A stretch of DNA of 64,000 nucleotides from an uncultured Rhodospirillaceae bacterium (GCA_964343605.1 CAYFKJ010000006.1:153133-217132), one strand, 5' to 3'. Positions 7,965 to 43,071 are shown, counted from the first letter of the stretch. Program-made: numbers and translations. The notes: a model not told the origin generated them from the letters alone.

Positions 7965-9875
7965 TTAACCCGGTCCTAAGCCCACCTTGGTCATGCCGTC
8001 GATGTAATGGTTTCTGTCGTCATCCTGCAGGAACGGCTCGGTCTTGAGCTGATGGTCGAAATCAAAATCGGGCGCGCGCCGGCGATATTCGGCGGCAGCT
8101 TCGCGCGCCGCCCCCATTTCGCCCAATTGGGCGTACGAGATGGCGAGCCAACGGTAAGTGCCCGCGCCAGGAGTCTGCACCTTGCGCAGAGCTGCGATAG
8201 CATCCTCGTATTTACGTTCGGTGTAATGCACCATGCCTTCGAACCATGAATACCAAGCGGGCGGTGTGAGGGTCATGGTGCGCCCTTTTTCGATCAGTGG
8301 CATGGCCTCCCCGACCCGGCCGGAATAGGTCAGCAGGCGGGCCAGCAAAACATAGCCGTCCGGATCATTGGGATTGATGGCGATGGCCCGTTCCTGGGCG
8401 TCGATGGCGTCCGCGTGGCGGTGAAGCGACATATACACGGATGCCAAGGCGGCGAAGTTTGAATGCGAATCGGGATTGACGCGCACTCCCGTCCGGGCCG
8501 CGTCAAGGGCTGCCTGAAGCGAACCCTGGGGATCGTCGCTCCAACGTTCCGAAGCATCGATCATATGGGTCCAAGCCAAACTGGCGTAGGCCCGGAAAAA
8601 ACTAGGATCGAGGTCGATGGCCTGTTGATAAAGCTCGCGGGCTTTATGGTTGTTGTCCGCCGTAAACTTGAACCAGTATTCGCGGCCCTTGAGGACGAGA
8701 TCGTAGGCTTTCAGGGTGTCGGGATCACGGGATTTGGCGCGATTGCGCTCCGTTTCCACCAGCTTTCCCGACAATGTGGCGACGATCTTCTGCACGACCT
8801 CGTCCTGAACGTCGAAGATATCCTCCAGCGTTCTGTCGAAGCGCTCGGCCCAAAGATGGTGGCCGCCTTCGGCATCGATAAGCTGGGCCGCGATGCGCAC
8901 CCGATCACCCGCCCGGCGGACACTGCCCTCAAGGACATAACGCACATTCAACTCCCGGCCGACGTCCTGGACCTTCACGGCCTTACCCCGGTAGGTGAAG
9001 ACGGTATTGCGGGCAATGACCAGAAGCTCCTGGAAGCGCGATAGTTCGGTGATCAGGTCCTCGGTAATGCCGTCGGCGAAATAGTCCTGTTCCGGGTCAC
9101 CGCCGAGATTGTCGAACGGCAGCACCGCAATGGCCGGCCTGTCGGCGGCATTGGCGGGCTGGGGGGGCGCATCGGCACTTTGCGCCAAAGCCGCAACGGC
9201 TGCGCCTGATCTGTCGGCCCCGCCAGCGCCAGCTACGGCGGCTTCGGCGGACGCCGTTTGCTGGCCGCTGATGTCCGGAGCGCCCTCGAAAAGGACGCGG
9301 AAAGCCCGAACGGGCTGTTCGATGTTTTTCAGGGCGTGTTCACCCATATCCTCCAGTTGATATCCCGGGCGGTGGCGGATTTGCTCGTTGACGCTGGCCG
9401 AGACCCAGATGCCGCCAGGTTCCGCCAGCGCTTCGATGCGGGCGGCGATATTGACCCCATCGCCATAGATGTCTTCATGGTCTTTCAGGATGTCGCCGAG
9501 GTTGATGCCGATCCGAAACTGCACCTTGTTCTCCTGGGGCACGTTCCGGACCCGTTGGCCGATTTCAGTTTGGATGATAACCGCTGCGGCGACAGCGTCT
9601 GAAACCGAGGGAAACTCGGCCAGAAAACCGTCGCCGGTAAGCTTCACGATACGGCCTCTGTTGGCGTCGATGGCAGGATCGACGACTTCCCGCCGATAGC
9701 TCCACCACGCGGCCATGGTTGCATCCTCATCCAACTGCATGAGACGTGAATAACCGGCGATGTCGGCGGCAAGGACGGCCGCCAGCGTGCGTGCGAAATC
9801 AACGTCGCTCAAGTTCGATCTCCCAGCGGGCCAGGGAAGGCGCGATATCGGGGCCCACGGCCGAAGCGTCAGCAT
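7965..9875 (-). CDS. class III adenylate/guanylate cyclase with C-terminal TPR-repeat domain
   Basis: CHD cyclase domain (LAADIAGYSRLM...KLTGDGFLAEFPSVSDAV...GINLGDI...YGDGVNIAARIE), a central CadC/TolB-N-like segment (IAVLPFDNLGGDPEQDYFADGITEDLITELSR) and TPR repeats. Exact start is uncertain (TTG at 9884, ATG at 9875, or a downstream TTG). Confidence 0.85.
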   Translation of the reverse strand: MLTLRPWAPISRLPWPAGRSNLSDVDFARTLAAVLAADIAGYSRLMQLDEDATMAAWWSYRREVVDPAIDANRGRIVKLTGDGFLAEFPSVSDAVAAAVIIQTEIGQRVRNVPQENKVQFRIGINLGDILKDHEDIYGDGVNIAARIEALAEPGGIWVSASVNEQIRHRPGYQLEDMGEHALKNIEQPVRAFRVLFEGAPDISGQQTASAEAAVAGAGGADRSGAAVAALAQSADAPPQPANAADRPAIAVLPFDNLGGDPEQDYFADGITEDLITELSRFQELLVIARNTVFTYRGKAVKVQDVGRELNVRYVLEGSVRRAGDRVRIAAQLIDAEGGHHLWAERFDRTLEDIFDVQDEVVQKIVATLSGKLVETERNRAKSRDPDTLKAYDLVLKGREYWFKFTADNNHKARELYQQAIDLDPSFFRAYASLAWTHMIDASERWSDDPQGSLQAALDAARTGVRVNPDSHSNFAALASVYMSLHRHADAIDAQERAIAINPNDPDGYVLLARLLTYSGRVGEAMPLIEKGRTMTLTPPAWYSWFEGMVHYTERKYEDAIAALRKVQTPGAGTYRWLAISYAQLGEMGAAREAAAEYRRRAPDFDFDHQLKTEPFLQDDDRNHYIDGMTKVGLGPG

Positions 9876-10061
9876 AATTGGCAATGCGGATACTAGCCAT
9901 ATATAGGGGCCGGTGGCGTCCGATTCACGGAATCTTCACTGCGATGTGTTTAGCTAGACCCATGTCGGCCGTTCAGATCGTCCAGGTTTCCAGTTTGTCA
10001 CCCCCCAAAGGAGTGCTAAGTTTTTGATATTAGAATTCAAAACGCATTCTGAGGGCTCAAT

Positions 10062-11375
10062 ATGCTGATGAATTTGGTCAGGCGACGTGTGTTTGCCGCA
10101 TTGGGGTTGGTTGCGGCTCTGGTGATCGGCGCGCCGCTCCAGCCGGTTCAGGCTGAATCGCTGCGCGAAACGCTGGCGGAACTGGTCAAAAATCACAAAC
10201 GCATGAAGGCTGCCGCCGCTGATCTGGAAGCTGCGCGGGAGGGCGCGATGGTTTCCGGCGGCAGTTGGTACCCGACATTGGATGTCACCGGGCACTACGG
10301 CTTCGAGGAACAGCGCAAGGGTGAGGGCACGGCCGACACCCATTTGCCGACGCGTGAATTGGATTTCAAGATCACCCAGTTGCTCTACGATTTCGGCTCG
10401 ACCAACGTTTCCATCGAGCAAGCGGATCTTGGCGTAACTCAGACGGAAGCCATTTTCGAAGCCACCCTTCAGGGTCTGCTGTTGGAGGCGATCTCGGCGC
10501 ACCTCGGCATCATCAGCGCCAACGAAATTCTGCGCTTCGCCAAAGGGTCGGAGGCCAACATCAAGCGCCAGACCGAATTGGAAGACGCCCGCGTCAAACG
10601 AGGTTCCGGTTTTTCGACGGATGTTCTGCAGGCCAAGGCCCAATTGGCCGGCGCCCAGGCACGACGCGTCCAGGCTGAAGGTGCCCTGCATCAGGCCCGC
10701 TACCGTTATCTCGCCGTTTTCGGCAAACTGCCGGACGATGTGACGAAGCTGAAAAAGCCCGCGACGCCGTTCGATCTCCTCCCCGACAACGTTGATGCGG
10801 CGGTTGGTCAGGCGCTGGAGAAAAATTTGCAGATTCAGGCCACGCAAATCGCTTCCACAATCGCTCGCAGCCAAACCAAGAAGTCATTCTCCGACGGCTT
10901 CCTGCCGACCTTCAACCTGATTGCCGAAAACAAGTACAAGGAAGACGTGGCCGGCACCGTCGGCTTCAAAGGCGAGCAGATCATCCGTATCGAAGGCACT
11001 TACTCGTTCAATTTGGGCGGAACCTCGTTCAACACTGTTGAGGCCAGCAAACAAGCTTACCTCGCCGCCGAGAGCCGGTTGGGGGATGCCAAGAACCTGG
11101 TGGCCGAACAGGCTCGCGTGGCCTGGCAACAGTTGGAGACCAGCCGTCTCAACGCGGAATTCCTGCGCAATCAAGCCAATATCGCCAGCGAATTCCTTGA
11201 TCTTGCGCGCAAGGAGCGGCGTCTCGGCAGACGTTCGCTGATCGACGTTCTGGCTGGCGAGACGGCCCTGATCAACGCCAGTTCAGATGCGGCGGCAGCC
11301 GAGACAGCTGTTTCGACCGCCGCTTTCTCCCTGCTGGCGGTGATGGGCCAGTTGAGCCTCGATTCGGTCAAGTAG
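10062..11375 (+). CDS. tolC: TolC-family outer membrane channel (type I secretion outer membrane protein)
   Basis: Signal peptide, two-repeat TolC architecture with LYDFGST-type motifs, 437 aa. Located directly upstream of the T1SS substrate. Confidence 0.85.
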   Translation: MLMNLVRRRVFAALGLVAALVIGAPLQPVQAESLRETLAELVKNHKRMKAAAADLEAAREGAMVSGGSWYPTLDVTGHYGFEEQRKGEGTADTHLPTRELDFKITQLLYDFGSTNVSIEQADLGVTQTEAIFEATLQGLLLEAISAHLGIISANEILRFAKGSEANIKRQTELEDARVKRGSGFSTDVLQAKAQLAGAQARRVQAEGALHQARYRYLAVFGKLPDDVTKLKKPATPFDLLPDNVDAAVGQALEKNLQIQATQIASTIARSQTKKSFSDGFLPTFNLIAENKYKEDVAGTVGFKGEQIIRIEGTYSFNLGGTSFNTVEASKQAYLAAESRLGDAKNLVAEQARVAWQQLETSRLNAEFLRNQANIASEFLDLARKERRLGRRSLIDVLAGETALINASSDAAAAETAVSTAAFSLLAVMGQLSLDSVK

Positions 11376-11397
11376 AGGTAAAGGAATCGATCCCGGC

Positions 11398-14300
11398 ATG
11401 GCCCTTCCCACCCCGCAATTCGGACCCCAAACGGTGCTGGACCCAGGTCTTCCGGCGTTCCTGCTGGATGCCGAATCAGAGGGTATCTCACTCGCCGTGC
11501 CGGGTGGGGATTTCGTTCTCAAAGCGGACTATCTGCGACAGGGGCCAGATCTGCTTCTCCAGGGAGACGGCCAATCGGTGCTGGTGCGCGGGTATTTCAC
11601 ACACGAGGCCCCACCGGATCTGACGACCACGGACGGCGCCGGCATCATAAGCGGCGATTTGGCGGTAAAATTGGCGGGACCCGCCACGGCCGGTCAGTTT
11701 GCGCAAGCGGCGCAGCCGGCGGACAGTGCCTCTATCGGCCAAGTCGAAAACGTGGCGGGACGGGCTTTCATCACCCACCCCGACGGGACCCGCATTCAGG
11801 CCGAAAGCGGCAGTAAAATTCTCCAAGGCGATCTCGTCGAGACCGAAGGCGGCGCCAGCATCGGTATCGTCTTCGCCGACGACACCACCTTCGCTCTCGG
11901 CGAGGAAGGCCGCATGGTGATCGATGAATTGATATTCGATCCCGGGTCGGATGACGGCAACGCCGCCTTCAACGTCGTGCAGGGGGTGTTCTCTTTCGTC
12001 AGCGGTGAAATCGCCAAGTCCGGCCCCGACGCCATGGTCGTGAAGACGCCCGTCGTGACCATCGGCATCCGGGGTACCACCGTGGCCGGCCGGGCGGCCG
12101 CTGAAGGGACCGCCAATACCATTACCCTACTGCCCGACCCTGGCGGTGCCGTCGGCGAAATCAGCGTCAGCAACGACGTCGGCACGCTGGTCCTGAACCA
12201 ACCCCTGCAGACCACCCAGGTCACCAGCGCTTTCGTGCCGCCGGCGCCGCCGATCACCCTGCCGGCCGCCGCGGCCCAGCAGTTGTACGGCCAGGCCACC
12301 GCTGCCATGCCGCCGCCACCGCCGCCTCGCGAGGACACTGACGATGCCGATGAGGGCGACGATCAGCAGGAGGGTGAACAGGCCGCCGAGGGCGAAGGCG
12401 AGCCCGAGGAGGGTGAAGGCGAAGAAGGCGCGGAAGGCGAACCCACCGAGGGCGAACAGGCTGCGGAAGGCGAGGGTGAACCCCTGGAAGGCGAGGGCGA
12501 ACCCGGGGAAGGCGAACCTGGAGAGGGTGAACCAGGCGAAGGCGAACCTGGCGAGGGCGAACCTCAAGCTGCTGAGGGCGAACCCGGAGAAGGCGAGCCC
12601 GGAGAAGGCGAGCCCGGCGAGGGAGAACCTGGTCCAGGCGAAGGCGAACCCGGCGGACCCGCAGAGGGCGAACCTGGACAGCCCGGCCCTGAAGAGGGCC
12701 AGCAAGTGGCCGGCGACGGCCAACCCGGGGAAGGAGAACCGGGTGAAGGTGGTCAGCCGGGTGAGGGTCCTGAAGGCCCTGGCGGGCCGGGTCAACCGGG
12801 CCAGGGACCGGACGATCAGAATCTGGCTGCCGCCACGGATGCCTTTAGCGATGCGGTCGAAGGCGGCGCCACTCAAGAGGAAGCTTTCCTGGCCGCCGCC
12901 GAGGCCGCGGGCGCCTCACCCGAGGAAGCTGCCGCTGCGGCTGAAGCCTTCGAACAGGCGCTGGCCGGCGGCGCGTCTCCAGCCGAGGCCCTGGCCGCTG
13001 CGGCAGCCTCACAAGCCGGTCCCGGTGGTCCGCTAGGCCCCGGCGGCTTCGGTCCGGGTGGTCCCGGCGGTCCTGCTCCCGGTAGCCCTGAAGCAGAAGC
13101 CCAAGCCGCGTTCGACAACGCCTTGGCGCAGGGCCTGTCAATGGAGCAGGCTTTTGCCGCTGCCGGTCAGGCAGCCGGCTTCGGGGGACCTCCACCGGGT
13201 ACCCAGGATTTCGCCGCCTTGATCGATCCCGCGACCGGCCAGCCGGGCGGACCCGGCGGCCCACAACCGTTCTCGCCGTTCGGCCCGGCGGGTTTCGGAC
13301 CAGGCGACCCGTTCGGACCCGGCCCCGGCGACTTTTTCGGACCGGGACCAGGTGACTTCTTCGGACCGGGGCCCGATGACCATTTCGGACCTGGATTTGG
13401 CCCAGAATTCGGTCCTGATTTCGGTCCGGAATTCGGCCCCGAGTTCGGACCGGAATTCGGATTCGGACCAGACCCTTTCTTCGACCCTGCGTTCCAAGAT
13501 CCGTTTTTCGACCCGTTTTTCGACCCCGCCTTCGACGATCCGTTTTTCAGCCCCGACGAATTCTTCATCGATCCGGAAGGCAATATCGTCTTCTTCGACG
13601 ACATCACCACCGACGATCTCATAGGCGACAATACAACCGATCAATTTAGCGAATTCCTGACGGCGAGCACGGGAGATGACAGTCTTATCGGCGGCGACGG
13701 CAACACCCAGTTCGAGATGATCCAGGGCTCGTCCCTGGGAGGATTCGACACGGTCGATGGCGGCCTTGGCACGGATGAGATCACGCTCCGGGGATTGACG
13801 GATATCCAGTTGATCTACGACGCCTCGACGGAGCAGGCGCAATACGCCAACGCCGGCGGCAATATCTCAGGACAGATATCGCTCTTTTCGGTCGAACAGT
13901 TGTTCGCCGACAACGGGACGGAAGCCCGTGTGCGGCTGGAATTCGGCACCGACAACTCCGGCTTCGGTTATATCCTGTCCGGCAGTTCTTCGGCCGATTC
14001 GATCACCTTGGGCGACGGCTCTGGGGCGGTTGACCTCGGCAACGGATCCCTCAACCACGATATCGATGCCCAGTCGAGTTTCCTCGGCTCCATTGTGTTC
14101 GGCGGCGGCGGCGACGACAACCTGACCGGACTGGCCGGCGTCAGCGACATCCTTTATGGCGGTAGCGGCAACGATACGTTGACCGGCCGGGGCGGCGGCG
14201 ACGCTCTGGACGGCGGCGACGGTAACGACCGCTTCATTTTCCGTTCAAGCTCGGATTTCCAGGAAGAATCGAGCAGTCAACCGGGCGGCAGCATCCTGGG

Positions 14301-15906
14301 CGGCAACGGAACGGACGACGTAATCCAATTCGGCGACGGTACGGGCTCGGCACAAACCTTCACCATGGCCCAGTCGGGCAGCAACAGTACCCTGGTGACG
14401 GGCATCGAGAGGTTGAACTTTCAGGAGGCTTCCTCGACGGCGGTCGTCAACGGTTCGATCTTTACCGGTTCCAGCAACAGCATTACGACCATCAACGCCG
14501 AATCCGGCGCCACCAACCTGACCATCACCGGCGCCTTCGGATCGCTTGACCTAAACACCGTCACCACGGTCTCCAGCAACGTGACCAACCTGAGCGTCAA
14601 TTCCACCGGCGGGTCGACTTTTTTGCGGGATGCCAACGATTCCACGGGGCGCACCCTGACCGGAACCTCGAATTCGGATCAGTTGGTCGGCCAGGGCGGG
14701 GCCGATACGATGAACGGCGGCGATGGAAACGATACGTTTTCCGTTTCAAGCAACTCCGACATCGTCTCGGGTGAAACGCTTAATGGCGGTAACGGCACGG
14801 ATCGGATCAACGTCGAATCAGCCAGTGTCACGTCGTTGACGCTGACAGGAGCCACCCTCAACAGCGTTGAGACCATAAACACCACCGAAGCGACCAGCGG
14901 CATCACGCTGACTGCCGGCTCAAGCGAACTGTCTGGCGTGACGACCATCTCTGGCGGCAGCGCCACCGATACGCTATCACTCACCAACAACACGACGCTG
15001 ACGGGCAAGACCATCAACGGTTACGAAAATCTTTCGCTGGCCGACGGCGTCACCGCGACGGGCACCGAATCGAATCTCGGTATGACGACGTTTAGCGGTA
15101 CCTCCGGTGGATCCGACGAGGAACTCACGATTTCATCCGGTAACTTCACCGCCAGCGGCGATACCTTCACGAATATCTTCCAAATCACCCTGGGCGAATC
15201 GTCGGCGAATCAGACCATGACGATCAACGGATCGACGACCCTCAACAGCACCCGGATCGTCGGCTCCCTCAACAGCAGCGTCGGCGACAGCATTTCCGCC
15301 AACGGCAACGTGACGTTCAACGGCGCCGACCTGATCAATATCGAGGACCTGACGCTGGCCGACGGCAGCGGCACCCGCCAGACCCTCTCGGTGAGTAATC
15401 AGAGCGACTTCAATGTGACCGAGATCGAAGGATTTACGGCCGGTACCGGATCAACCACCGATATCTTCGACTGGACGTCGGCCCTGCAGTCGGGCAACGG
15501 CACGACAACCGGACTGACCGCTTCCGATGACGTTGTGCTGAGCGAACAGACCTCGCAGCTCTCCACTGATTTCCTGTCGACAGGGACGTTCGGCGCCATC
15601 GAGTTCAACTTCAGTGGGGCGAACATCAGCAACGATTTCCTGACCACCGCAGAATCGACCTTGCTGACATCCATTGCCGGTAAGCTCGACGGGGCGGGGG
15701 TCGCCGGGGCGGCGACCACCGAGGGCTCGGCCAGCTCCGATGTCTTGATGGTGTTTTACGAAGCCGCAAGCCAGGGAAGCACATCCGACGCCATAATCGT
15801 GCGCTACCAGGAAGGCACGACGACGTCGGACGCCTTCTCAAGCGACCTCAGCGTGGTGGCCATCCTGCAAGGGGTGACGGACATAACGGACACCAATCTG
15901 GCATAA
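11398..15906 (+). CDS. giant secreted type I secretion substrate: FecR-like N-terminal domain, hyper-acidic GEGEP tandem repeats, Ala-rich and Gly/Pro/Phe-rich repeats, RTX calcium-binding repeats, C-terminal secretion signal
   Basis: 1502-aa ORF. FecR-like region (AGRAFITHPDGTRIQAESGSKILQGDLVETEGGASIGIVF). Residues 300-480 are (GEGEP)n. FGPEFGPDFGP and DPFFDPFFDPAF repeats follow. Nonapeptide GGxGxD repeats (GGSGNDTLTGRGGGDALDGGDGNDRF, NGGDGNDTF, NGGNGTDRI). Ser/Thr/Asn-rich beta region and a C-terminal ...DLSVVAILQGVTDITDTNLA tail. Co-located with the ABC/MFP/TolC genes. Confidence 0.85.
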   Translation: MALPTPQFGPQTVLDPGLPAFLLDAESEGISLAVPGGDFVLKADYLRQGPDLLLQGDGQSVLVRGYFTHEAPPDLTTTDGAGIISGDLAVKLAGPATAGQFAQAAQPADSASIGQVENVAGRAFITHPDGTRIQAESGSKILQGDLVETEGGASIGIVFADDTTFALGEEGRMVIDELIFDPGSDDGNAAFNVVQGVFSFVSGEIAKSGPDAMVVKTPVVTIGIRGTTVAGRAAAEGTANTITLLPDPGGAVGEISVSNDVGTLVLNQPLQTTQVTSAFVPPAPPITLPAAAAQQLYGQATAAMPPPPPPREDTDDADEGDDQQEGEQAAEGEGEPEEGEGEEGAEGEPTEGEQAAEGEGEPLEGEGEPGEGEPGEGEPGEGEPGEGEPQAAEGEPGEGEPGEGEPGEGEPGPGEGEPGGPAEGEPGQPGPEEGQQVAGDGQPGEGEPGEGGQPGEGPEGPGGPGQPGQGPDDQNLAAATDAFSDAVEGGATQEEAFLAAAEAAGASPEEAAAAAEAFEQALAGGASPAEALAAAAASQAGPGGPLGPGGFGPGGPGGPAPGSPEAEAQAAFDNALAQGLSMEQAFAAAGQAAGFGGPPPGTQDFAALIDPATGQPGGPGGPQPFSPFGPAGFGPGDPFGPGPGDFFGPGPGDFFGPGPDDHFGPGFGPEFGPDFGPEFGPEFGPEFGFGPDPFFDPAFQDPFFDPFFDPAFDDPFFSPDEFFIDPEGNIVFFDDITTDDLIGDNTTDQFSEFLTASTGDDSLIGGDGNTQFEMIQGSSLGGFDTVDGGLGTDEITLRGLTDIQLIYDASTEQAQYANAGGNISGQISLFSVEQLFADNGTEARVRLEFGTDNSGFGYILSGSSSADSITLGDGSGAVDLGNGSLNHDIDAQSSFLGSIVFGGGGDDNLTGLAGVSDILYGGSGNDTLTGRGGGDALDGGDGNDRFIFRSSSDFQEESSSQPGGSILGGNGTDDVIQFGDGTGSAQTFTMAQSGSNSTLVTGIERLNFQEASSTAVVNGSIFTGSSNSITTINAESGATNLTITGAFGSLDLNTVTTVSSNVTNLSVNSTGGSTFLRDANDSTGRTLTGTSNSDQLVGQGGADTMNGGDGNDTFSVSSNSDIVSGETLNGGNGTDRINVESASVTSLTLTGATLNSVETINTTEATSGITLTAGSSELSGVTTISGGSATDTLSLTNNTTLTGKTINGYENLSLADGVTATGTESNLGMTTFSGTSGGSDEELTISSGNFTASGDTFTNIFQITLGESSANQTMTINGSTTLNSTRIVGSLNSSVGDSISANGNVTFNGADLINIEDLTLADGSGTRQTLSVSNQSDFNVTEIEGFTAGTGSTTDIFDWTSALQSGNGTTTGLTASDDVVLSEQTSQLSTDFLSTGTFGAIEFNFSGANISNDFLTTAESTLLTSIAGKLDGAGVAGAATTEGSASSDVLMVFYEAASQGSTSDAIIVRYQEGTTTSDAFSSDLSVVAILQGVTDITDTNLA
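12490..12650 (+). repeat. 15-bp imperfect tandem DNA repeat (GGCGAACCTGGNGAG)n encoding GEGEP pentapeptide repeats
   Basis: At least 9 consecutive 15-nt units are visible in the sequence, lying inside the T1SS substrate CDS. Confidence 0.8.
13380..13460 (+). repeat. 9-bp tandem repeat (TTCGGNCCNGAN)n encoding FGP(E/D) repeats
   Basis: ttcggacctggatttggcccagaattcggtcctgatttcggtccggaattcggccccgagttcggaccggaattcgga lies inside the T1SS substrate CDS. Confidence 0.7.
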
Positions 15907-15941
15907 GCTAGTCACTTGGCCGGGATGACGCCGATATCGCC

Positions 15942-18203
15942 ATGAACGATCCCGCTGCCGAAGCGGAAAGAGCGCGCCAATCCATGTCGGCGGGCGCCCC
16001 GGATCGGGCGCTTGCCATCTGGGAATCCTTACTCCAGCATCAGCCAAACTTGATCGAGGCAAGAATCGGTGCTGCAGATTGCCTCATGGCTTTGAAGCGG
16101 CCGGCCGAAGCTGTCGAGCACTATCGCGCCGCTGTGGCAGGAGGCGCCGATCAGGCCAACCTGCTGTTCGGCCTGGGAACGGCGGAGGCCGCGGCGGGCG
16201 TCCTGGCCGAAGCCCGTCGACATCTAGAAGCGTCCCTCAAAATCGATGATGCCAATCCCCACGCGCACAACAACCTGGCCTCGGTGCTACTACGCCAAAA
16301 CGACCGTCCGGGTGCGCTGCGACACTTCCGCCGCGCACTTGAGCTCAAGCCTGATTTGGAAAGCGCACGGAACGGTGCGGCCACCGCCGCGAGAGAACCC
16401 CGGCGGACGATCGAGAGCTACCTGTCACGTGGATTCGCGGCGGTAAACAAGTCGGAATTCGCCTCCGCCAAACACGAATTCCAGGGGGCTGTAATTGATT
16501 CACCCCTCAGATCCGAAGCTTGGGTCGGCCTCGGTTTGGCTCAACTTGGCCTTTGGGAGCGACAGGAGGCACTTGAATCTCTCGACGAAGCAGTTCGACT
16601 CGATCCGGAAAACGTTGAGGCCCTGTATCACCGCGTCATTGCTCTGAGGGCACTGGGGCGGGCCGAGGAAGCGGTTGAAGCGTGTCAGAGCGTTTTGGCG
16701 GTTGAACCGTTGGAGGTCCGGGCCTGGGCGGCGCGCGGAGCCATTGAATTGGAACGGGGTCGCGTGACCCAGGCAATTCCGGACTTAGAGAAGGCCTTGG
16801 CGGGGCGGCGTCATCAGAGCCGGGAAGCGGTCCTTGCCGCGTTGTGTTTCGCTTATCGCATTATCGGTCAATGGGGCAAGGAGTATGAAACGGCGCGTCG
16901 CGAACTGATTTCGATTTTTCTTGACGACGATTATGTGCTCGGTCCGCTCGTTGTCGCACCATTTCAACTCCTGCCATTGGGAGTTCCTGCCGAGGTGCAG
17001 CAAATCGCGGCCCGTCGCGCCAGTGCCAGGGGCGATTCGGGTGCCGTGACATTGCCTGCGGTCGCAAAAAAGGCCGGCAGAGCACAAATCAGATTGGGGT
17101 ACATGTCGCCCGACTTTCGCAATCACAGCATTGCCGCTTCGATCAGAGACGTCATCGCCTCACACGATCGCAATGAATTCGAAGTTTACGGGTTCGCCCT
17201 TAATCAAGACATGGACGAAACGACGGAGTACTTCATTTCGTCGTTCGATCGATTTCACACCCTTGCTTCGCTTAGCCATATCGCTGCGGCGAGGGTGATC
17301 GCCGAACTGGGCATCGATGTACTAGTCGATCTGGCCGGTCACACCAAAGGCGGCAGGCCGGAAATTTTGGCCCAAGGTCCGGCAGCCGTGCAGGTTCATG
17401 CTGTCGGATATGGCGGACCGGTGTGTGCCTCCTATTTGCCTTGGCGCTTGACCGACGCAATATCGACGCCCAGCGGAATCAGACGATATTTCGACGAGAA
17501 ATTGATCGATTTGCCGAACAACGCCTTGCCGGCATCCCGTCCCGCCGTTGAGCCCAGGCCGTTCACTCGGCAAGAGCTCGGATTGCCTTCAGATGCACCG
17601 GTATTTGCGAATTTCGGCGGCACCTACAAAATCGATCCCGAGAGCTTCGATGCCTGGGCCGCAATACTGAAAAGTGTACCCGATGCCCGCTTGCTGCTGT
17701 TGGATTTGGGGCCTACGGTGCGGTCCAACATGTGGCGCGAAGTAGAAGTGAGGGGAGTTGCGCCCAATCGGCTGATCTTCACGCCCTTCACCGATCCGGC
17801 CAGCCATCTGGGCCGGTACGGAGTGGTCGACCTCTGCCTGGATACCCTGGTTCACAACGGCGGCGTGACCACCACCGATGCCCTGTGGATGGGGACGCCT
17901 GTCCTCACCACCTATCGCAGCGATCTGCCCGACCGTACCGGAGCATCGCTTCTGGCGGCGGCCGGTCTCCCTCAGTTGGTTGCCACCGACAACGCCGACT
18001 TTGTATCCCGCGCCGTTCAAATGGCAACCACGCCCGGGGCGCTGGCTGCCCTGCGCCGCCAAGTTGTCGCCAATCAAGAAACCGCGCCGCTGTTCGATAC
18101 CGCCCTCTATACCCGAAATCTGGAGATGGCGCTGCTGGACCTCTGGGCGCGGGCGGTCGATAATCGGCCGTCTTTGCAGGGAGACGCCGAACGCGATGCT
18201 TGA
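15942..18203 (+). CDS. TPR-repeat protein fused to GT41-family glycosyltransferase (O-GlcNAc transferase / HMW1C-like)
   Basis: N-terminal TPR repeats and a C-terminal GT41 catalytic region (RLGYMSPDFRNHS, VDLAGHTKGGRPEIL, ...LVHNGGVTTTDALWMGTPVLT). Sits between the T1SS substrate and the ABC exporter. Confidence 0.8.
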   Translation: MNDPAAEAERARQSMSAGAPDRALAIWESLLQHQPNLIEARIGAADCLMALKRPAEAVEHYRAAVAGGADQANLLFGLGTAEAAAGVLAEARRHLEASLKIDDANPHAHNNLASVLLRQNDRPGALRHFRRALELKPDLESARNGAATAAREPRRTIESYLSRGFAAVNKSEFASAKHEFQGAVIDSPLRSEAWVGLGLAQLGLWERQEALESLDEAVRLDPENVEALYHRVIALRALGRAEEAVEACQSVLAVEPLEVRAWAARGAIELERGRVTQAIPDLEKALAGRRHQSREAVLAALCFAYRIIGQWGKEYETARRELISIFLDDDYVLGPLVVAPFQLLPLGVPAEVQQIAARRASARGDSGAVTLPAVAKKAGRAQIRLGYMSPDFRNHSIAASIRDVIASHDRNEFEVYGFALNQDMDETTEYFISSFDRFHTLASLSHIAAARVIAELGIDVLVDLAGHTKGGRPEILAQGPAAVQVHAVGYGGPVCASYLPWRLTDAISTPSGIRRYFDEKLIDLPNNALPASRPAVEPRPFTRQELGLPSDAPVFANFGGTYKIDPESFDAWAAILKSVPDARLLLLDLGPTVRSNMWREVEVRGVAPNRLIFTPFTDPASHLGRYGVVDLCLDTLVHNGGVTTTDALWMGTPVLTTYRSDLPDRTGASLLAAAGLPQLVATDNADFVSRAVQMATTPGALAALRRQVVANQETAPLFDTALYTRNLEMALLDLWARAVDNRPSLQGDAERDA

Positions 18204-19890
18204 AGTCTTGCGCAGACTAGCGGTCCGGCCGGTGCTGGCAGTTGAAATGCTGGCAGCGTCCCTGTTCGCCAATGTGCTGGCCCTGGCGACGCCGATCTTC
18301 GTCATTCAGGTGCTCAACCGTTACGTCGCCCATGGCGTCGATTCGACGCTCGCGACGTTGACCGGCGGGGCGGTCATCGCCATCGTGCTGGAATTCGGCT
18401 TCCGCCGCGTCCGACTGCGCTTTGCCGAAGCTGTCAATTCCAAGCCCGACGAAGCTTTGTCATTGGATACCTACGCTGTTTTGACCGGCGCCAAGGCAGC
18501 CGCCATGGACATGTTGCCGCCCGGATTGCGGCGCGAGGTTCTGTCCGGCGGAGATACCATTCGCCAGGCCTTTTCCGCACCCCACCTCTGCACCCTGATG
18601 GATGTGCCTTTTGCCCTGCTGTTCCTCGGCGCCTTGCTCCTTTTGCATCCGCTCCTCGCCTTCGTGGCCGGCGGGTTCGTTCTTGCCGTATTCCTGGCCG
18701 TGCTGGTCGGCATGGGCTCGATGCGCGGTTTGACCAAAGCGATGTCACAGGCCGGCGGCCGGCGCGGCGTGCTCATCGATTCGGCGATCGATGCCGCCGA
18801 CGCGGTCCGGGTATTTAACGCGGCAGGATTTCTGCGTCGCCGCTGGGCCCAGGGGGTGCGCGTTCTGGATGGGCTCAAGCGCCGCATCGGCAGCCGCCAA
18901 AATGCCATTCAAGGTCTGATTCAAAGCGCCCATGCGCTGATGACCATCGCCATGATCAGCCTCGCCGCCTTGCTGGTCGTTCGCGGCGAACTGGACGTCG
19001 GCACCATGATCGGCGCCAATATTCTGGCCTTGCGCGCGCTCGTTCCGCTGGCCAGCATGGCGCAGATGACGGAGGGCTGGGCCCGGGCGCGCCAGGCCCG
19101 GGACATGTTCGCCGAGTTTTCGCGCCTGCCCAGGGAACGCGAAGACGGGACGGCGATCGGCGCTTATTCGGGACGGGTCGGACTGACCGATGTCACCTTC
19201 GCCTACCCGGGGTCACAAGCGCCGTTGTTCGAACAACTCGATTTCGAACTTCAACCCGGCGAAGTGTTGGTGGTGACGGGTGCCAACGGTAGCGGCAAGA
19301 CCACCCTGGCGCGGCTGCTCGTCGGCTTGCTGGAACCGGTGCGCGGCCACGTGCTGGTGGACGGCATCGACCTTGCCCAGGTGGCGCCGGCGTGGTGGCG
19401 CCAGCAGATCGTCTATCTGCCGCAGGAGCCGAGGTTCCTCGGCGCCAGCCTGCGGGAGAATTTCCTGGCCTTCCGGGAGGACCTCGATGCGGCGGCGATC
19501 CACGCCCTGCTCGGTCGCGTCGGTTTGCAGGAATTCGTCGACCGCCACGCCGACGGGTTGGACATGCCGCTTCTGAACGGCGGCACCAATCTGTCTCTCG
19601 GCATGCGCCGCCGACTGGCGCTGGCCCGCGGTCTGGCCCATGACGGCAAACTGGTGATCCTGGACGAACCGACCGAAGGTCTGGACGCGGAGGGCGCGGC
19701 GCACGTTTATGCCGTGATGAACCAGCTTGCCTCCGAAGGTCACACCATCATCGCCTTCTCCCATGACGCCCAAATCATGCGCGGGGCGCATCACGTTCTC
19801 GATCTCAATGAAAAGCCGGTGCCCAAATTTTCAACCCTGGCCCAAATGACCCCGCCCAGGGCGGCCAATCTGCCGGAGGCCGGGCAATGA
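18196..19890 (+). CDS. type I secretion system ABC transporter (PrtD/HlyB family ATPase-permease, no C39 peptidase domain)
   Basis: Start MLEVLRRLAV overlaps the upstream stop by 8 nt. Six-TM domain plus NBD with Walker A (GANGSGKTT), signature (LSLGMRRR) and Walker B (LVILDEPTEGLD). Confidence 0.9.
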   Translation: MLEVLRRLAVRPVLAVEMLAASLFANVLALATPIFVIQVLNRYVAHGVDSTLATLTGGAVIAIVLEFGFRRVRLRFAEAVNSKPDEALSLDTYAVLTGAKAAAMDMLPPGLRREVLSGGDTIRQAFSAPHLCTLMDVPFALLFLGALLLLHPLLAFVAGGFVLAVFLAVLVGMGSMRGLTKAMSQAGGRRGVLIDSAIDAADAVRVFNAAGFLRRRWAQGVRVLDGLKRRIGSRQNAIQGLIQSAHALMTIAMISLAALLVVRGELDVGTMIGANILALRALVPLASMAQMTEGWARARQARDMFAEFSRLPREREDGTAIGAYSGRVGLTDVTFAYPGSQAPLFEQLDFELQPGEVLVVTGANGSGKTTLARLLVGLLEPVRGHVLVDGIDLAQVAPAWWRQQIVYLPQEPRFLGASLRENFLAFREDLDAAAIHALLGRVGLQEFVDRHADGLDMPLLNGGTNLSLGMRRRLALARGLAHDGKLVILDEPTEGLDAEGAAHVYAVMNQLASEGHTIIAFSHDAQIMRGAHHVLDLNEKPVPKFSTLAQMTPPRAANLPEAGQ

Positions 19891-21188
19891 CCGATCGGCA
19901 GACCCAAGCCGATGCCGGCCACCACGGCGCCGGCGCCGCCAGCCACTTTCTATTGGCATTGTGCCTGCTTGCCGTCGCCGCTTTTGGCGCCTGGAGCCAT
20001 TTCGGCAAGCTGGATGTCGTCAGCGACGCCATCGGCGAGGTCGTGCCGTCCTCCCAGGTGAAGTCGATCCAGCATTTGGAGGGCGGGATCGTAAGGGAAA
20101 TCCTGGTCCGCGAAGGGGACGGGGTGAAGTCGGGGCAGCCCCTGGTCGTGCTGGAACAAACGGCATCGGACGCCGATGTCCAGGAACTCGTCGTGCGCAT
20201 GCGGGCGCTGCGCGTCGACGTCGCCCGCCTGGAAGCCGAACTGTCGGGAGCCAAAAGCATCAACTTCCGCAAGGATTTCGCGGCGGCCCACAAGGCTTTG
20301 GTCGCGGAGGCGCGCAAAAGGTTCAACACGCGCATGAGCCGCATCGACACCGAAATCGCGGCCCAGCGACAGCTGATCACCCAGCGACGCGAGGAAGCCC
20401 GGGAAATCCGCGCCCGCATCGACAAGCGGCGAAAAAGCCTCGTCTTGCTGAAGGAACAGATCGCCATCAGCGAGGAGTTGATGAAGGAGGATCTGACCAA
20501 TCGAATGCTGCACCTCAACCTTTTGAAGGAGGAAACCTCGCTGGTCGGCGGCGTGGCGGAGGACGAGGCGGCATTGAAACGGGTTGAGGCAGGGGTGACG
20601 GAAGCGCGTGCCCAGACCTCCGCCCTGCGGCATCAGTTCAACGAAACCGTTCGCCAGGAATTGGACACCAAGCGCCGCTCGCTCGACGAATTCACCGAAC
20701 GCATGTCCAAGCTCAGGGACAATCTTGCGCGGACTACTTTACGCTCACCCGTGGATGGCGTGGTCAAATCTCTCCACATCGCGACCGTGGGCGGCGTGGT
20801 GCGGCCGGGCGGCGACGTTATCGACGTCGTTCCCGCCGGGGACCGCCTGGTGATCGAGGCCAAGCTGCCGGCCCAGGATGTCGGATACGTCGCACCCGGC
20901 TAGTTGGCCAAGGTGGCGCTGGCCTCTGCCGATGCCGTTCGCTTTGGGCGGATCGAGGGACGAGTTGCACACATCAGTCCCGACACGCTGACGACTGAAG
21001 ACAATGTCCCCTACTACAAGGTCAGGGTGGAAACGGCGGTGGATTACTTCGAACGCCGCGGCGCGCGTTACTCCCTGGTGCCGGGGGTACAAGTAATCTG
21101 CAGCATCCAGACCGGCCGGCGCTCGGTGCTGGAATACCTGCTGGACCCCTTCCTCGGAGCCTTTCAGGCCGCTATGCAGGAGCGTTGA
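19887..21188 (+). pseudogene. HlyD-family type I secretion membrane fusion protein interrupted by an in-frame TAG at 20901-20903
   Basis: ORF 19887-20903 (338 aa) ends ...DVGYVAPG-stop. The same frame continues at 20904 with LAKVALASADAVRFGRIEGRVAHISPD (94 aa), which is the contiguous conserved HlyD C-terminal beta-barrel. TAG sits where HlyD homologues have Gln (CAG). Confidence 0.8.
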
Positions 21189-21201: not shown

Positions 21202-21621
21202 TCAAGCCATGTCCGCGCGGAAACGCTCTGTTTGAGAGGCCCGTTCCGCGGGCGGCGTTTCCAGCCACAACTCGATGCGGTTCAGGATGTCCTCCAGCGA
21301 CGCCTGCTTGGTCAGGTAGTCCGCCCCGCCGGCCGCGAAGGCCTGATTGATGGTTTCCCTGTCGTCAAGCGCCGAGACGAACAGGATTGGGATGTCTTCG
21401 CCGAAGCGTTCGCGAATCATGCCGCAACCTTTGATGCCGTCTATTTCCGGCATCATGATATCGGTCAGGATGATGTCGGGTAGGTTTTCCTCAAGAACGC
21501 CGAGCGCCTCCTCAACCCCCGAGGCGGCGCTGACGATATACCCCTTGGCTGTCATCATATCGCCATAGAGCCGGCTCAACATGTTCTCGTCTTCGATCAA
21601 AAGAATGGTTTGGCCACTCAT
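21202..21621 (-). CDS. single-domain response regulator (CheY-like receiver)
   Basis: ILLIEDENMLSRLY...ILTDIMMPEIDGIK...ILFVSALD... with conserved Asp and Lys positions and no output domain. Confidence 0.85.
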   Translation of the reverse strand: MSGQTILLIEDENMLSRLYGDMMTAKGYIVSAASGVEEALGVLEENLPDIILTDIMMPEIDGIKGCGMIRERFGEDIPILFVSALDDRETINQAFAAGGADYLTKQASLEDILNRIELWLETPPAERASQTERFRADMA

Positions 21622-42789: not shown

Positions 42790-42835
42790 AAAATACGCCG
42801 GCTGCCCTTCGGGCAACGCGAACGCGGGGTTGAGG
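42790..42835 (-). terminator. candidate terminator-type expression platform of the B12 riboswitch
   Basis: Minus-strand hairpin GUUGCCC-GAA-GGGCAGC followed by CGGCGUAUUUUUCUU. It lies between the aptamer and the cobU Shine-Dalgarno. Confidence 0.5.
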
Positions 42836-42869
42836 TGCTGAGGAGGTCTCCTGGCTTGGGGTCTTCGAT

Positions 42870-43020
42870 TTGCGGGCGCCTTCCCGACCGAAGGGGCCGT
42901 GCGGCCCGGTCAGTGGCGGTTGCCCGAAATCTCCCCCCTACAGTTGCGGGGGCAGCGCCGGACTGGCAAATCCGCGATTTCGGCTGCGGACCGCTTCACC
43001 GGCTTCCCTGTTCTCAACAC
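42870..43020 (-). ncRNA. cobalamin (AdoCbl) riboswitch aptamer upstream of the cobU-cobW-cobN-cobO-cobQ operon
   Basis: Minus-strand reading gives ...GAACAGGGAAGCCGGTGAAGCGGTCCGCAGCCGAAATCGCGGATTTGCCAGTCCGGCGCTGCCCCCGCAACTGTAGGGG...CAACCGCCACTGACCGGGCCGCACGGCCCCTTCGGTCGGGAAGGCGCCCGC. It contains the GGGAA-CCGGTGAA core, the CCCGCAACTGT element and the GCCACTG B12 box. Confidence 0.8.
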
Positions 43021-43071
43021 TGTGGCGAAGCTATCACGCGGGCGCGGGCCGCGCCAGACTCGAATGAACGG

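Follow-up and report, generated by a model that had tools for sequence, protein, structure and literature searches.

The locus described here lies in a window of 64,000 nucleotides (the whole stretch of DNA analyzed) from an uncultured marine Rhodospirillaceae bacterium (GCA_964343605.1 CAYFKJ010000006.1:153133-217132). Positions 10062-21188 are occupied by a tight array of five same-strand open reading frames (ORFs), which encode, in this order, a TolC-family outer-membrane channel, a large polyanionic RTX protein (the cargo), a glycosyltransferase of family 41 with tetratricopeptide repeats (TPR-GT41, or simply GT41), the ATP-binding cassette (ABC) exporter of a T1SS (type I secretion system), and a HlyD-family periplasmic adaptor (Table 1). 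Successive genes are separated by gaps of 22 bp and 35 bp and then overlap by 8 nt (GT41/ABC) and 4 nt (ABC/HlyD). A sequence-only reading of this DNA had described a complete T1SS locus of contiguous, co-oriented genes with short or overlapping junctions. The ORF coordinates and the Pfam and NCBIfam identities agree with the latter part of this description. The word "complete" has to be dropped, since an in-frame TAG codon breaks hlyD.

The TolC protein falls slightly short of the TIGR01844 cut-off (217 bits, cut-off 225). The top NCBIfam matches of the ABC exporter are the T1SS models TIGR03375 and TIGR01842, both under their equivalog cut-offs; TIGR01842 aligns over the full length and TIGR03375 from model position 152 onward only, and by this alignment the exporter has no N-terminal C39 or C39-like domain. 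Promoter-like and terminator-like sites are not more frequent across the locus than in shuffled sequence, and the same scan of the locus found no terminator-like site at the GT41/ABC junction. An internal promoter or terminator uncoupling GT41 from the exporter was rejected on these site counts.

Table 1. Features of the secretion locus, of related loci, and of the flanking DNA. Positions refer to the window unless a locus (L number) is named; aa, amino acids.
Feature	Position	Strand	Basis
TolC-family outer-membrane channel, 437 aa	10062-11375	+	PF02321 OEP, 162 bits
Polyanionic RTX cargo, 1502 aa	11398-15906	+	Pfam FecR and HemolysinCabind, both over cut-offs
Cargo, FecR-fold domain, aa ~113-280	11734-12237	+	Pfam FecR, 28.7-32.8 bits
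Cargo, low-complexity spacer of ~430 aa: (GEGEP)n, Ala-rich helical repeats, Gly/Pro/Phe repeats (FGPE, DPFF)	12310-13602	+	Composition, motif counts
Cargo, blocks of calcium-binding RTX nonapeptides (aa 788-976; aa 1107-1140)	13759-14817	+	PF00353 HemolysinCabind, 33.9-42.2 bits
Cargo, Ser/Thr/Asn/Gly-rich C-terminal half	14395-15906	+	30-37% Ser+Thr, measured over the last 500 residues
TPR-GT41, 753 aa	15942-18203	+	PF13844 Glyco_transf_41, 221 bits; many TPR families
TPR domain (aa ~1-330) and GT41 catalytic domain (aa ~331-753)	15942-18203	+	PF13844; TPR families
T1SS ABC exporter, 564 aa	18196-19890	+	PF00664 ABC_membrane, PF00005 ABC_tran
HlyD-family periplasmic adaptor, broken by in-frame TAG	19887-21188	+	TIGR01843
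PKHD-type hydroxylase in GT41-less loci	L101 9036-9713; L149 9085-9762; L129 9232-9915; L096, L117, L118, L123, L125, L128		Pfam 2OG-FeII_Oxy_3 and PKHD_C; NF003974, 239 bits
TPR-sulfotransferase in GT41-less loci	L096 3008-4336; L120 1879-3186; L137 5946-7361		TPR and Sulfotransfer_3
Class III adenylate/guanylate cyclase with C-terminal TPR	7965-9884	-	Pfam Guanylate_cyc and TPR
Single-domain response regulator	21202-21621	-	PF00072, 87 bits
Cobalamin riboswitch	42830-43039	-	86.8 bits

The cargo has a net charge of about -197, with 7 lysines and no cysteine. It contains 12 GEGEP, 14 FGP, and 6 DP[FA]F motifs and 7 nonapeptides of the GGxGxD type, as well as an Ala-rich segment, and DNA tandem repeats with periods of 15, 12, and 39 underlie the repeat tracts. 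The motif counts and the Pfam matches thus bear out the unusual composition ascribed to this protein from its sequence, namely an acidic tract together with Ala-rich, FGP, DPFF, and GGxGxD repeats. Full-length cargo orthologs (in a JGI contig and in loci L087-L089 and L094) are 1494-1837 aa long, and spacer-like tracts are also present in cargo orthologs. The RTX blocks match the beta-rolls of serralysin and CyaA in the PDB. The C-terminus, ending in ...VVAILQGVTDITDTNLA, is conserved within the clade and is the presumed secretion signal. The C-terminal T1SS signal named in the sequence-only reading is not confirmed beyond this, and the last 301 aa of the cargo gave no match to any family model. 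The acidic spacer contains only 3-5 Ser/Thr per 100 residues, so the C-terminal half would be the likely acceptor if the cargo carries O-linked sugars. The cargo also contains 31 NxS/T sequons, compared with 14.9 +/- 3.2 expected, and the reverse motif is likewise enriched. The corresponding z-scores are +1 to +2.5 in other GT41-bearing cargos and reach +3.7 in GT41-less ones. As the excess is not specific to GT41-bearing loci, it was rejected as evidence for N-glycosylation.

At E < 1e-5, the first 304 residues of the cargo match 230 clusters and so represent a large protein family. Where a match has a named source, which is the case for few of them, it is mostly from Alphaproteobacteria, Rhodospirillales, and Magnetococcales metagenome-assembled genomes (MAGs) or marine-metagenome sequences, and all of them are annotated just as "FecR domain-containing". 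An AlphaFold model of this N-terminal domain, based on 45 homologs, is confident (predicted local distance difference test score 83, predicted template-modeling score 0.77); in it, a small beta domain (aa ~20-95) precedes a beta-sandwich (aa ~113-280). A Foldseek search with the model retrieved the FecR/PupR-type periplasmic domains 4M0H and 6OVK and the "cell surface anchoring domain" 5IX9 (template-modeling score 0.76, root-mean-square deviation 1.0 over 61 columns). The family profile matches 5IX9_A at profile positions 103-178 with E 1.9e-9; the profile was required, as a direct phmmer search of the domain against the PDB gave no match. The entry 5IX9_A was deposited under the title "Antifreeze protein", and 5IX9 is the anchoring domain at the N-terminus of MpIBP, the ice-binding RTX adhesin from Marinomonas primoryensis. 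The NF033682 retention_LapA model scores 31.4 bits with the cargo domain (cut-off 50). In RTX adhesins, the retention module folds without calcium, halts secretion, and leaves the adhesin anchored in the outer-membrane channel (bioRxiv 10.1101/2025.09.30.679566).

Judging by profile and fold, the first half of the FecR-fold domain is a homolog of the retention (plug) module of RTX adhesins, not the FecR-like sensor-type domain named in the sequence-only reading. Because of this homology, the cargo is probably retained on the cell surface instead of being released. A role as a FecR-type anti-sigma regulator was also considered; such proteins combine an anti-sigma N-domain, a transmembrane helix, and a periplasmic FecR domain, and their genes adjoin those of an ECF sigma factor and a TonB-dependent receptor. 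This role fails, since the FecR fold alone is shared, the domain is N-terminal in a 1502-aa RTX protein, and its neighbors are T1SS genes.

The catalytic half of the TPR-GT41 protein (aa 331-753) is similar to the fly, human, Xanthomonas, and Thermobaculum OGT enzymes (E values from 1e-60 to 1e-44) and to plant SPINDLY (1e-36), and OGT structures match TPR-GT41 at E 1e-73 to 1e-44. The match to the HMW1C-like N-glycosyltransferase (NGT) 3Q3E (and 8J30) is not significant (E = 1.2). Given also the presence of TPRs, in place of which the HMW1C/NGT subfamily has an all-alpha domain, the assignment to the HMW1C type has to be replaced with the OGT/SPINDLY type, and the HMW1C analogy is valid just in the sense that a GT41 enzyme modifies an adhesin ahead of secretion. 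A check of the catalytic residues found those for nucleotide-sugar binding in place: human OGT H558, K842, H901, R904, T922, and D925 align with GT41 H395, K563, H622, R625, T643, and D646, all six being invariant in nine homologs that include paralogs of 30-34% identity. Conservation of the catalytic domain equals or exceeds that of the TPR part, which scores 71 bits with the SycD/LcrH type III chaperone model (cut-off 105). The N-terminus has no signal-peptide-like hydrophobic stretch, so the protein is presumably cytoplasmic. Taken together, GT41 looks like an active OGT/SPINDLY-type enzyme.

The TAG codon at 20901-20903 replaces Gln339 of HlyD with a stop and divides the gene into 338 aa, the stop, and 94 aa. 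TIGR01843 matches the 338-aa ORF with its positions 7-326 (276 bits) and the 94-aa remainder with positions 329-422 (89 bits). The homology to HlyD is clear, and the intact adaptor gene expected in a T1SS operon is not found in this genome. In relatives, codon 339 is CAA or CAG (Gln) and the intact orthologs have 433-435 aa. Apart from this codon, the locus is free of frameshifts and stops. Pairwise ratios of nonsynonymous to synonymous substitution rates (dN/dS), computed against relatives ~79% identical in nucleotides (the nearest named one being an uncultured Rhodospirillaceae MAG), are 0.098 for GT41, 0.04-0.07 for the other genes of the locus, and 0.018 for the part of hlyD past the stop. 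GT41 is the fastest evolver of the operon, with 78% amino acid identity to the nearest relative (87-92% for the C-terminal part of the cargo, ABC, HlyD, and TolC), and its dN/dS is still about 0.1. As strong purifying selection acts on the locus, including the hlyD codons past the stop, the TAG codon is either very recent or a sequencing error; unless it is an error, the system may be inactive in this genome.

Orthologs of GT41 are few (five clusters at 47-78% identity, the next at ~31%), and a look-up of its exact sequence gave no record. The order TolC-cargo-GT41-ABC-HlyD recurs at GT41 identities of 78% in L001, 48% in L002 and the JGI contig, and 46-52% in L087-L094. A metagenome scan with the ABC exporter as a query yielded 80 loci. 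Where ABC identity is at least 68%, GT41 lies directly upstream of the exporter gene in 8/8 metagenomic loci, the two genes overlapping by as much as 8 nt or lying as much as 15 nt apart. Where it is at most 56%, GT41 was upstream of the exporter gene in 0/72 loci, ~55 of which have enough upstream sequence to judge. Many GT41-less loci show the TolC plus FecR/RTX cargo arrangement. As the cargo family and the T1SS are thus widespread without GT41, the enzyme is a clade-specific accessory.

The L003-L005 sister population carries a 5.68-kb deletion equivalent to window positions 12273-17953. It fuses cargo codon ~292 to GT41 codon ~671, so that the last ~80 GT41 codons remain, and yields a 371-aa ORF (locus positions 10001-11116) with 9-nt microhomology at the junction. 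TolC, ABC, and HlyD are intact in this variant, and cargo and GT41 are lost jointly. An assembly artifact is unlikely, since the identical junction occurs on 16 contigs from several samples.

Two more loci resemble parts of the system. In a Sideroxyarcus MAG (L042), an ORF at 8614-9036 that is 32% identical to the FecR-type N-domain of the cargo lies directly upstream of a GT41 paralog, and T1SS genes were not detected within 10 kb. On a long-read contig (L006, 10001-21095), a single ABC-HlyD pair has upstream of it two genes for FecR/retention-type N-domains, called at 364 and 356 aa. Gene calls on this contig seem to be fragmented by frameshifts (groEL is split too), and GT41 is absent.

The place occupied by GT41, that is, the slot upstream of the exporter, holds other enzymes in sister clades. 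Nine GT41-less loci have a ~225-aa PKHD-type 2-oxoglutarate-Fe(II) hydroxylase (YbiX/PiuC-like) without TPR. In most of them it lies directly upstream of ABC, between cargo and exporter; in L125 it follows right after TolC. Three loci contain a 435-471-aa protein with TPR and sulfotransferase domains directly upstream of ABC, and one of these, L096, carries both enzymes in tandem, hydroxylase and sulfotransferase. In other GT41-less loci the slot is empty or contains an insertion sequence. The occurrence of a hydroxylase or a TPR-sulfotransferase in the same position makes the slot a place for cargo-modifying enzymes and suggests, as far as gene content can tell, chemical modification of the cargo ahead of export. 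A specific TPR module shared by GT41 and the slot sulfotransferase was rejected, as the similarity (32% over 68 aa) is generic TPR likeness.

A similar combination is found outside this family. In Sphaerotilus uruguayifluvii (L084, 2248-16642), the gene for an ALTTAQ-repeat protein of 2453 aa is followed by GT41, then by a methyltransferase gene, and finally by ABC and HlyD. A Leptothrix MAG (L082, 2575-21422) has a similar order, with a GT1-like gene where Sphaerotilus has the methyltransferase and with a 461-aa ORF after HlyD. In these two genomes the repeat protein has 2300-2450 aa, GT41 lies within ~70 bp, and ABC has an N-terminal extension. Here GT41 has been paired independently with an unrelated giant protein and a T1SS.

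Based on these observations, we consider it fairly probable that the locus is a T1SS operon for a surface-retained polyanionic RTX protein with its own cytoplasmic modifying enzyme. The cargo would be made in the cytoplasm and stay unfolded there, as calcium is low. TPR-GT41 would bind it via the TPR domain and add single sugars, most likely O-linked to Ser/Thr of the C-terminal half. The ABC-HlyD-TolC channel would then export the cargo with its C-terminus first, and the RTX blocks would fold outside the cell with calcium. Finally, the N-terminal retention-module/FecR-fold domain, unable to pass, would plug the channel, so that the surface product would consist of a disordered acidic spacer of ~430 residues and a glycosylated head. 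We infer here the cargo as the acceptor of GT41, the sugar and its linkage, the retention on the surface, and the role, which could be adhesion, cation binding, or formation of a surface coat.

The conserved slot, the tight coupling to the exporter gene, purifying selection, retained catalytic residues, joint deletion with the cargo, alternative enzymes in the same slot, and independent recurrence all favor glycosylation followed by export. What remains of this pathway as first proposed in the sequence-only reading is its core, which is supported by genomic context: the fixed slot, the selection, the residues, the overlapping junction, and the lack of any excess of promoter- or terminator-like sites. 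The HMW1C-type route and the intact system have to be abandoned.

Several observations weigh against this interpretation. The hlyD gene is interrupted in this genome. The positions equivalent to OGT H920 and K898 are Gly and Pro in GT41, because of which the donor sugar is not assignable from the sequence. No LapG or LapD was found within 10 kb in syntenic contigs or among the scanned ORFs of the window, and the C39-like domain that adhesin exporters typically carry is missing from ABC, so that the retention mechanism is only partly paralleled by known adhesins. GT41-bearing and GT41-less cargos overlap in composition, acidic tracts, Ser/Thr content, and NxS/T density; a compositional signature of GT41 presence in the cargo was rejected, as acidity, Ser/Thr content, Cys, and sequon density provided no discriminator. 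Finally, a genome scan with GT41 showed only 3/79 loci of more distant paralogs to be near a T1SS, so that there is no general link between GT41 and T1SS. The co-occurrence of GT41 and T1SS genes, an analysis already suggested along with the original proposal, is thus fixed within the clade and rare elsewhere.

The last two points are also arguments for the strongest rival explanation, that GT41 is a passenger, inserted once at the base of the clade, which modifies another cytoplasmic or exported protein such as flagellin, a pilin, or a regulator, its place between cargo and exporter being of no consequence for the cargo. No GT41-specific cargo feature was found, 76/79 paralog loci are away from any T1SS, and most loci of the family to which this T1SS and its cargo belong lack GT41. 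Moreover, bacterial OGT homologs with other targets exist, for instance, pilin in Synechococcus elongatus (PMC9306852). We nevertheless regard a passenger as unlikely. The position of GT41 is strict in all members of the clade, at 46-78% GT41 identity and with tight or overlapping ABC junctions; sister clades have a hydroxylase or a TPR-sulfotransferase in its slot; the deletion variant loses GT41 along with the cargo; and Sphaerotilus and Leptothrix independently pair another giant protein with GT41 and a T1SS.

It is quite improbable that GT41 serves primarily, through its TPRs, as a chaperone or holdase that maintains the huge unfolded acidic cargo in a state fit for export or hands it to the ABC transporter, with catalysis dispensable or vestigial. 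Such a role would agree with the length of the TPR domain (~330 aa), with its sub-cut-off SycD/LcrH matches and the existence of TPR secretion chaperones in other systems, and with the presence of TPRs in the slot sulfotransferase too. But the nucleotide-sugar residues are invariant in orthologs and in 30%-identical paralogs, the catalytic domain is no less conserved than the TPR domain, the slot hydroxylase of the PKHD type has no TPR, and the TPRs of GT41 and the sulfotransferase are alike only generically. A decaying remnant without function in this genome, to which the hlyD nonsense codon and the deletion of most of the cargo and GT41 in the sister population (16 contigs) might point, is likewise quite improbable in view of dN/dS values of 0.04-0.10 for every gene and 0.018 in the post-stop part of hlyD, the lack of further frameshifts or stops, and the single C-to-T change that could be a sequencing or assembly error. 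Each of the three rivals fits the comparative pattern less well than a T1SS operon with a dedicated cargo-modifying enzyme.

Each component of such an operon, and the principle of an operon-encoded modifier acting before export, is already known. The cargo resembles RTX adhesins, such as LapA of Pseudomonas fluorescens and MpIBP, in being very large, acidic, and exported by a T1SS, in the C-terminal RTX beta-roll, and in an N-terminal domain with homology to 5IX9, the anchoring domain of MpIBP. Unlike them, it has no Ig-like extender array (there were no Ig-like Pfam matches) and has the disordered spacer instead; its retention-like segment lies inside the larger FecR-fold domain, after ~110 extra residues; and the operon includes a glycosyltransferase. 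The presence of Ig-like extender domains arranged in tandem has been taken as a minimum criterion for RTX adhesins (bioRxiv 10.1101/2025.09.30.679566).

T1SSs export unfolded proteins straight out of the cytoplasm, and in hlyCABD-type operons the acyltransferase HlyC/RtxC modifies the toxin ahead of this export. To our knowledge, the only well-known operon-encoded modifications of T1SS cargo are the acylation of RTX toxins on Lys and the sulfation of RaxX on Tyr. In the raxX-raxSTAB system, the sulfotransferase RaxST sulfates RaxX before its export by RaxAB (PMC6637879). In both systems, a cytoplasmic enzyme encoded in a T1SS operon modifies the cargo before export, which is predicted here as well. 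The enzyme here is a GT41 instead of an acyltransferase or a sulfotransferase, and the cargo is a giant surface protein instead of a pore-forming toxin or a small peptide.

Among glycosyltransferases, the enzyme shares with the OGT family (human OGT, XcOGT, TtOGT, and SPINDLY) a TPR domain followed by a GT-B domain and keeps the key Lys and the His/Arg/Thr/Asp contacts. It differs in having no metazoan intervening domain, in the replaced H920 and K898 equivalents, and in the location of its gene inside a secretion operon. The FlmG protein of Caulobacter crescentus is a soluble TPR plus GT-B enzyme whose TPR domain binds flagellin, which is O-glycosylated in the cytoplasm before export (PMC7591256). 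FlmG, also alphaproteobacterial, resembles the enzyme described here in architecture and in the action before export that is proposed for the latter; unlike that enzyme, it serves flagellar type III secretion and uses a pseudaminic acid donor. HMW1C/NGT enzymes also represent cytoplasmic GT41-class modification of an adhesin before secretion, whereas HMW1C has no TPR, works with two-partner secretion, and has no significant similarity to the GT41 of this locus.

Glycosylated RTX proteins have been on record for decades: SwmA and oscillin are glycoproteins (PMC3034196), and the literature that we found names no enzyme glycosylating either of them. No report of a GT41/OGT gene in a T1SS operon was found in the literature covered, subscription journals being mostly outside this coverage. 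If the proposed function is correct, glycosylation would join the operon-encoded modifications of T1SS cargo, and a T1SS substrate would for the first time have a glycosylation pathway dedicated to it. We know of no substrate for most bacterial OGT homologs, and the cargo would provide them with a concrete, genetically linked candidate.

The most interesting generalization, which is directly testable, concerns the interchangeable slot for a glycosyltransferase, a hydroxylase, or a sulfotransferase. We tentatively suggest that a widespread family of T1SS operons of marine proteobacteria, mostly α-proteobacteria, could possess a modular modifier slot just upstream of the ABC gene, filled in different lineages by an OGT-like GT41, a PKHD-type oxygenase resembling prolyl hydroxylases, or a TPR-sulfotransferase, each of which would decorate a giant surface-retained polyanionic RTX cargo before export. 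Pre-export modification would then be a general and diversifiable way of tuning the cell surface, beyond toxin acylation and RaxX sulfation. It might also be a route by which abundant marine bacteria tailor a highly charged surface protein, with consequences for adhesion, cation binding, and recognition by phages or grazers.

Two neighbors of the operon are kept in the GT41 clade. L003, the JGI contig, and L087-L089 (the last three with 63-79% identity) share the divergently transcribed gene for a cyclase with TPR. The convergent response regulator gene is shared by L001, L003, the JGI contig, and, with 55-67% identity, L087-L092. Both genes may be involved in the regulation of the operon or may merely reflect shared synteny. 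Further downstream, at ~21.7-42 kb, genes for cobalamin biosynthesis (CobT, CobS, CbtAB, CbiG-type, CobQ, CobN, and CobW) form a large cluster of an ordinary kind, with a cobalamin riboswitch (Table 1).

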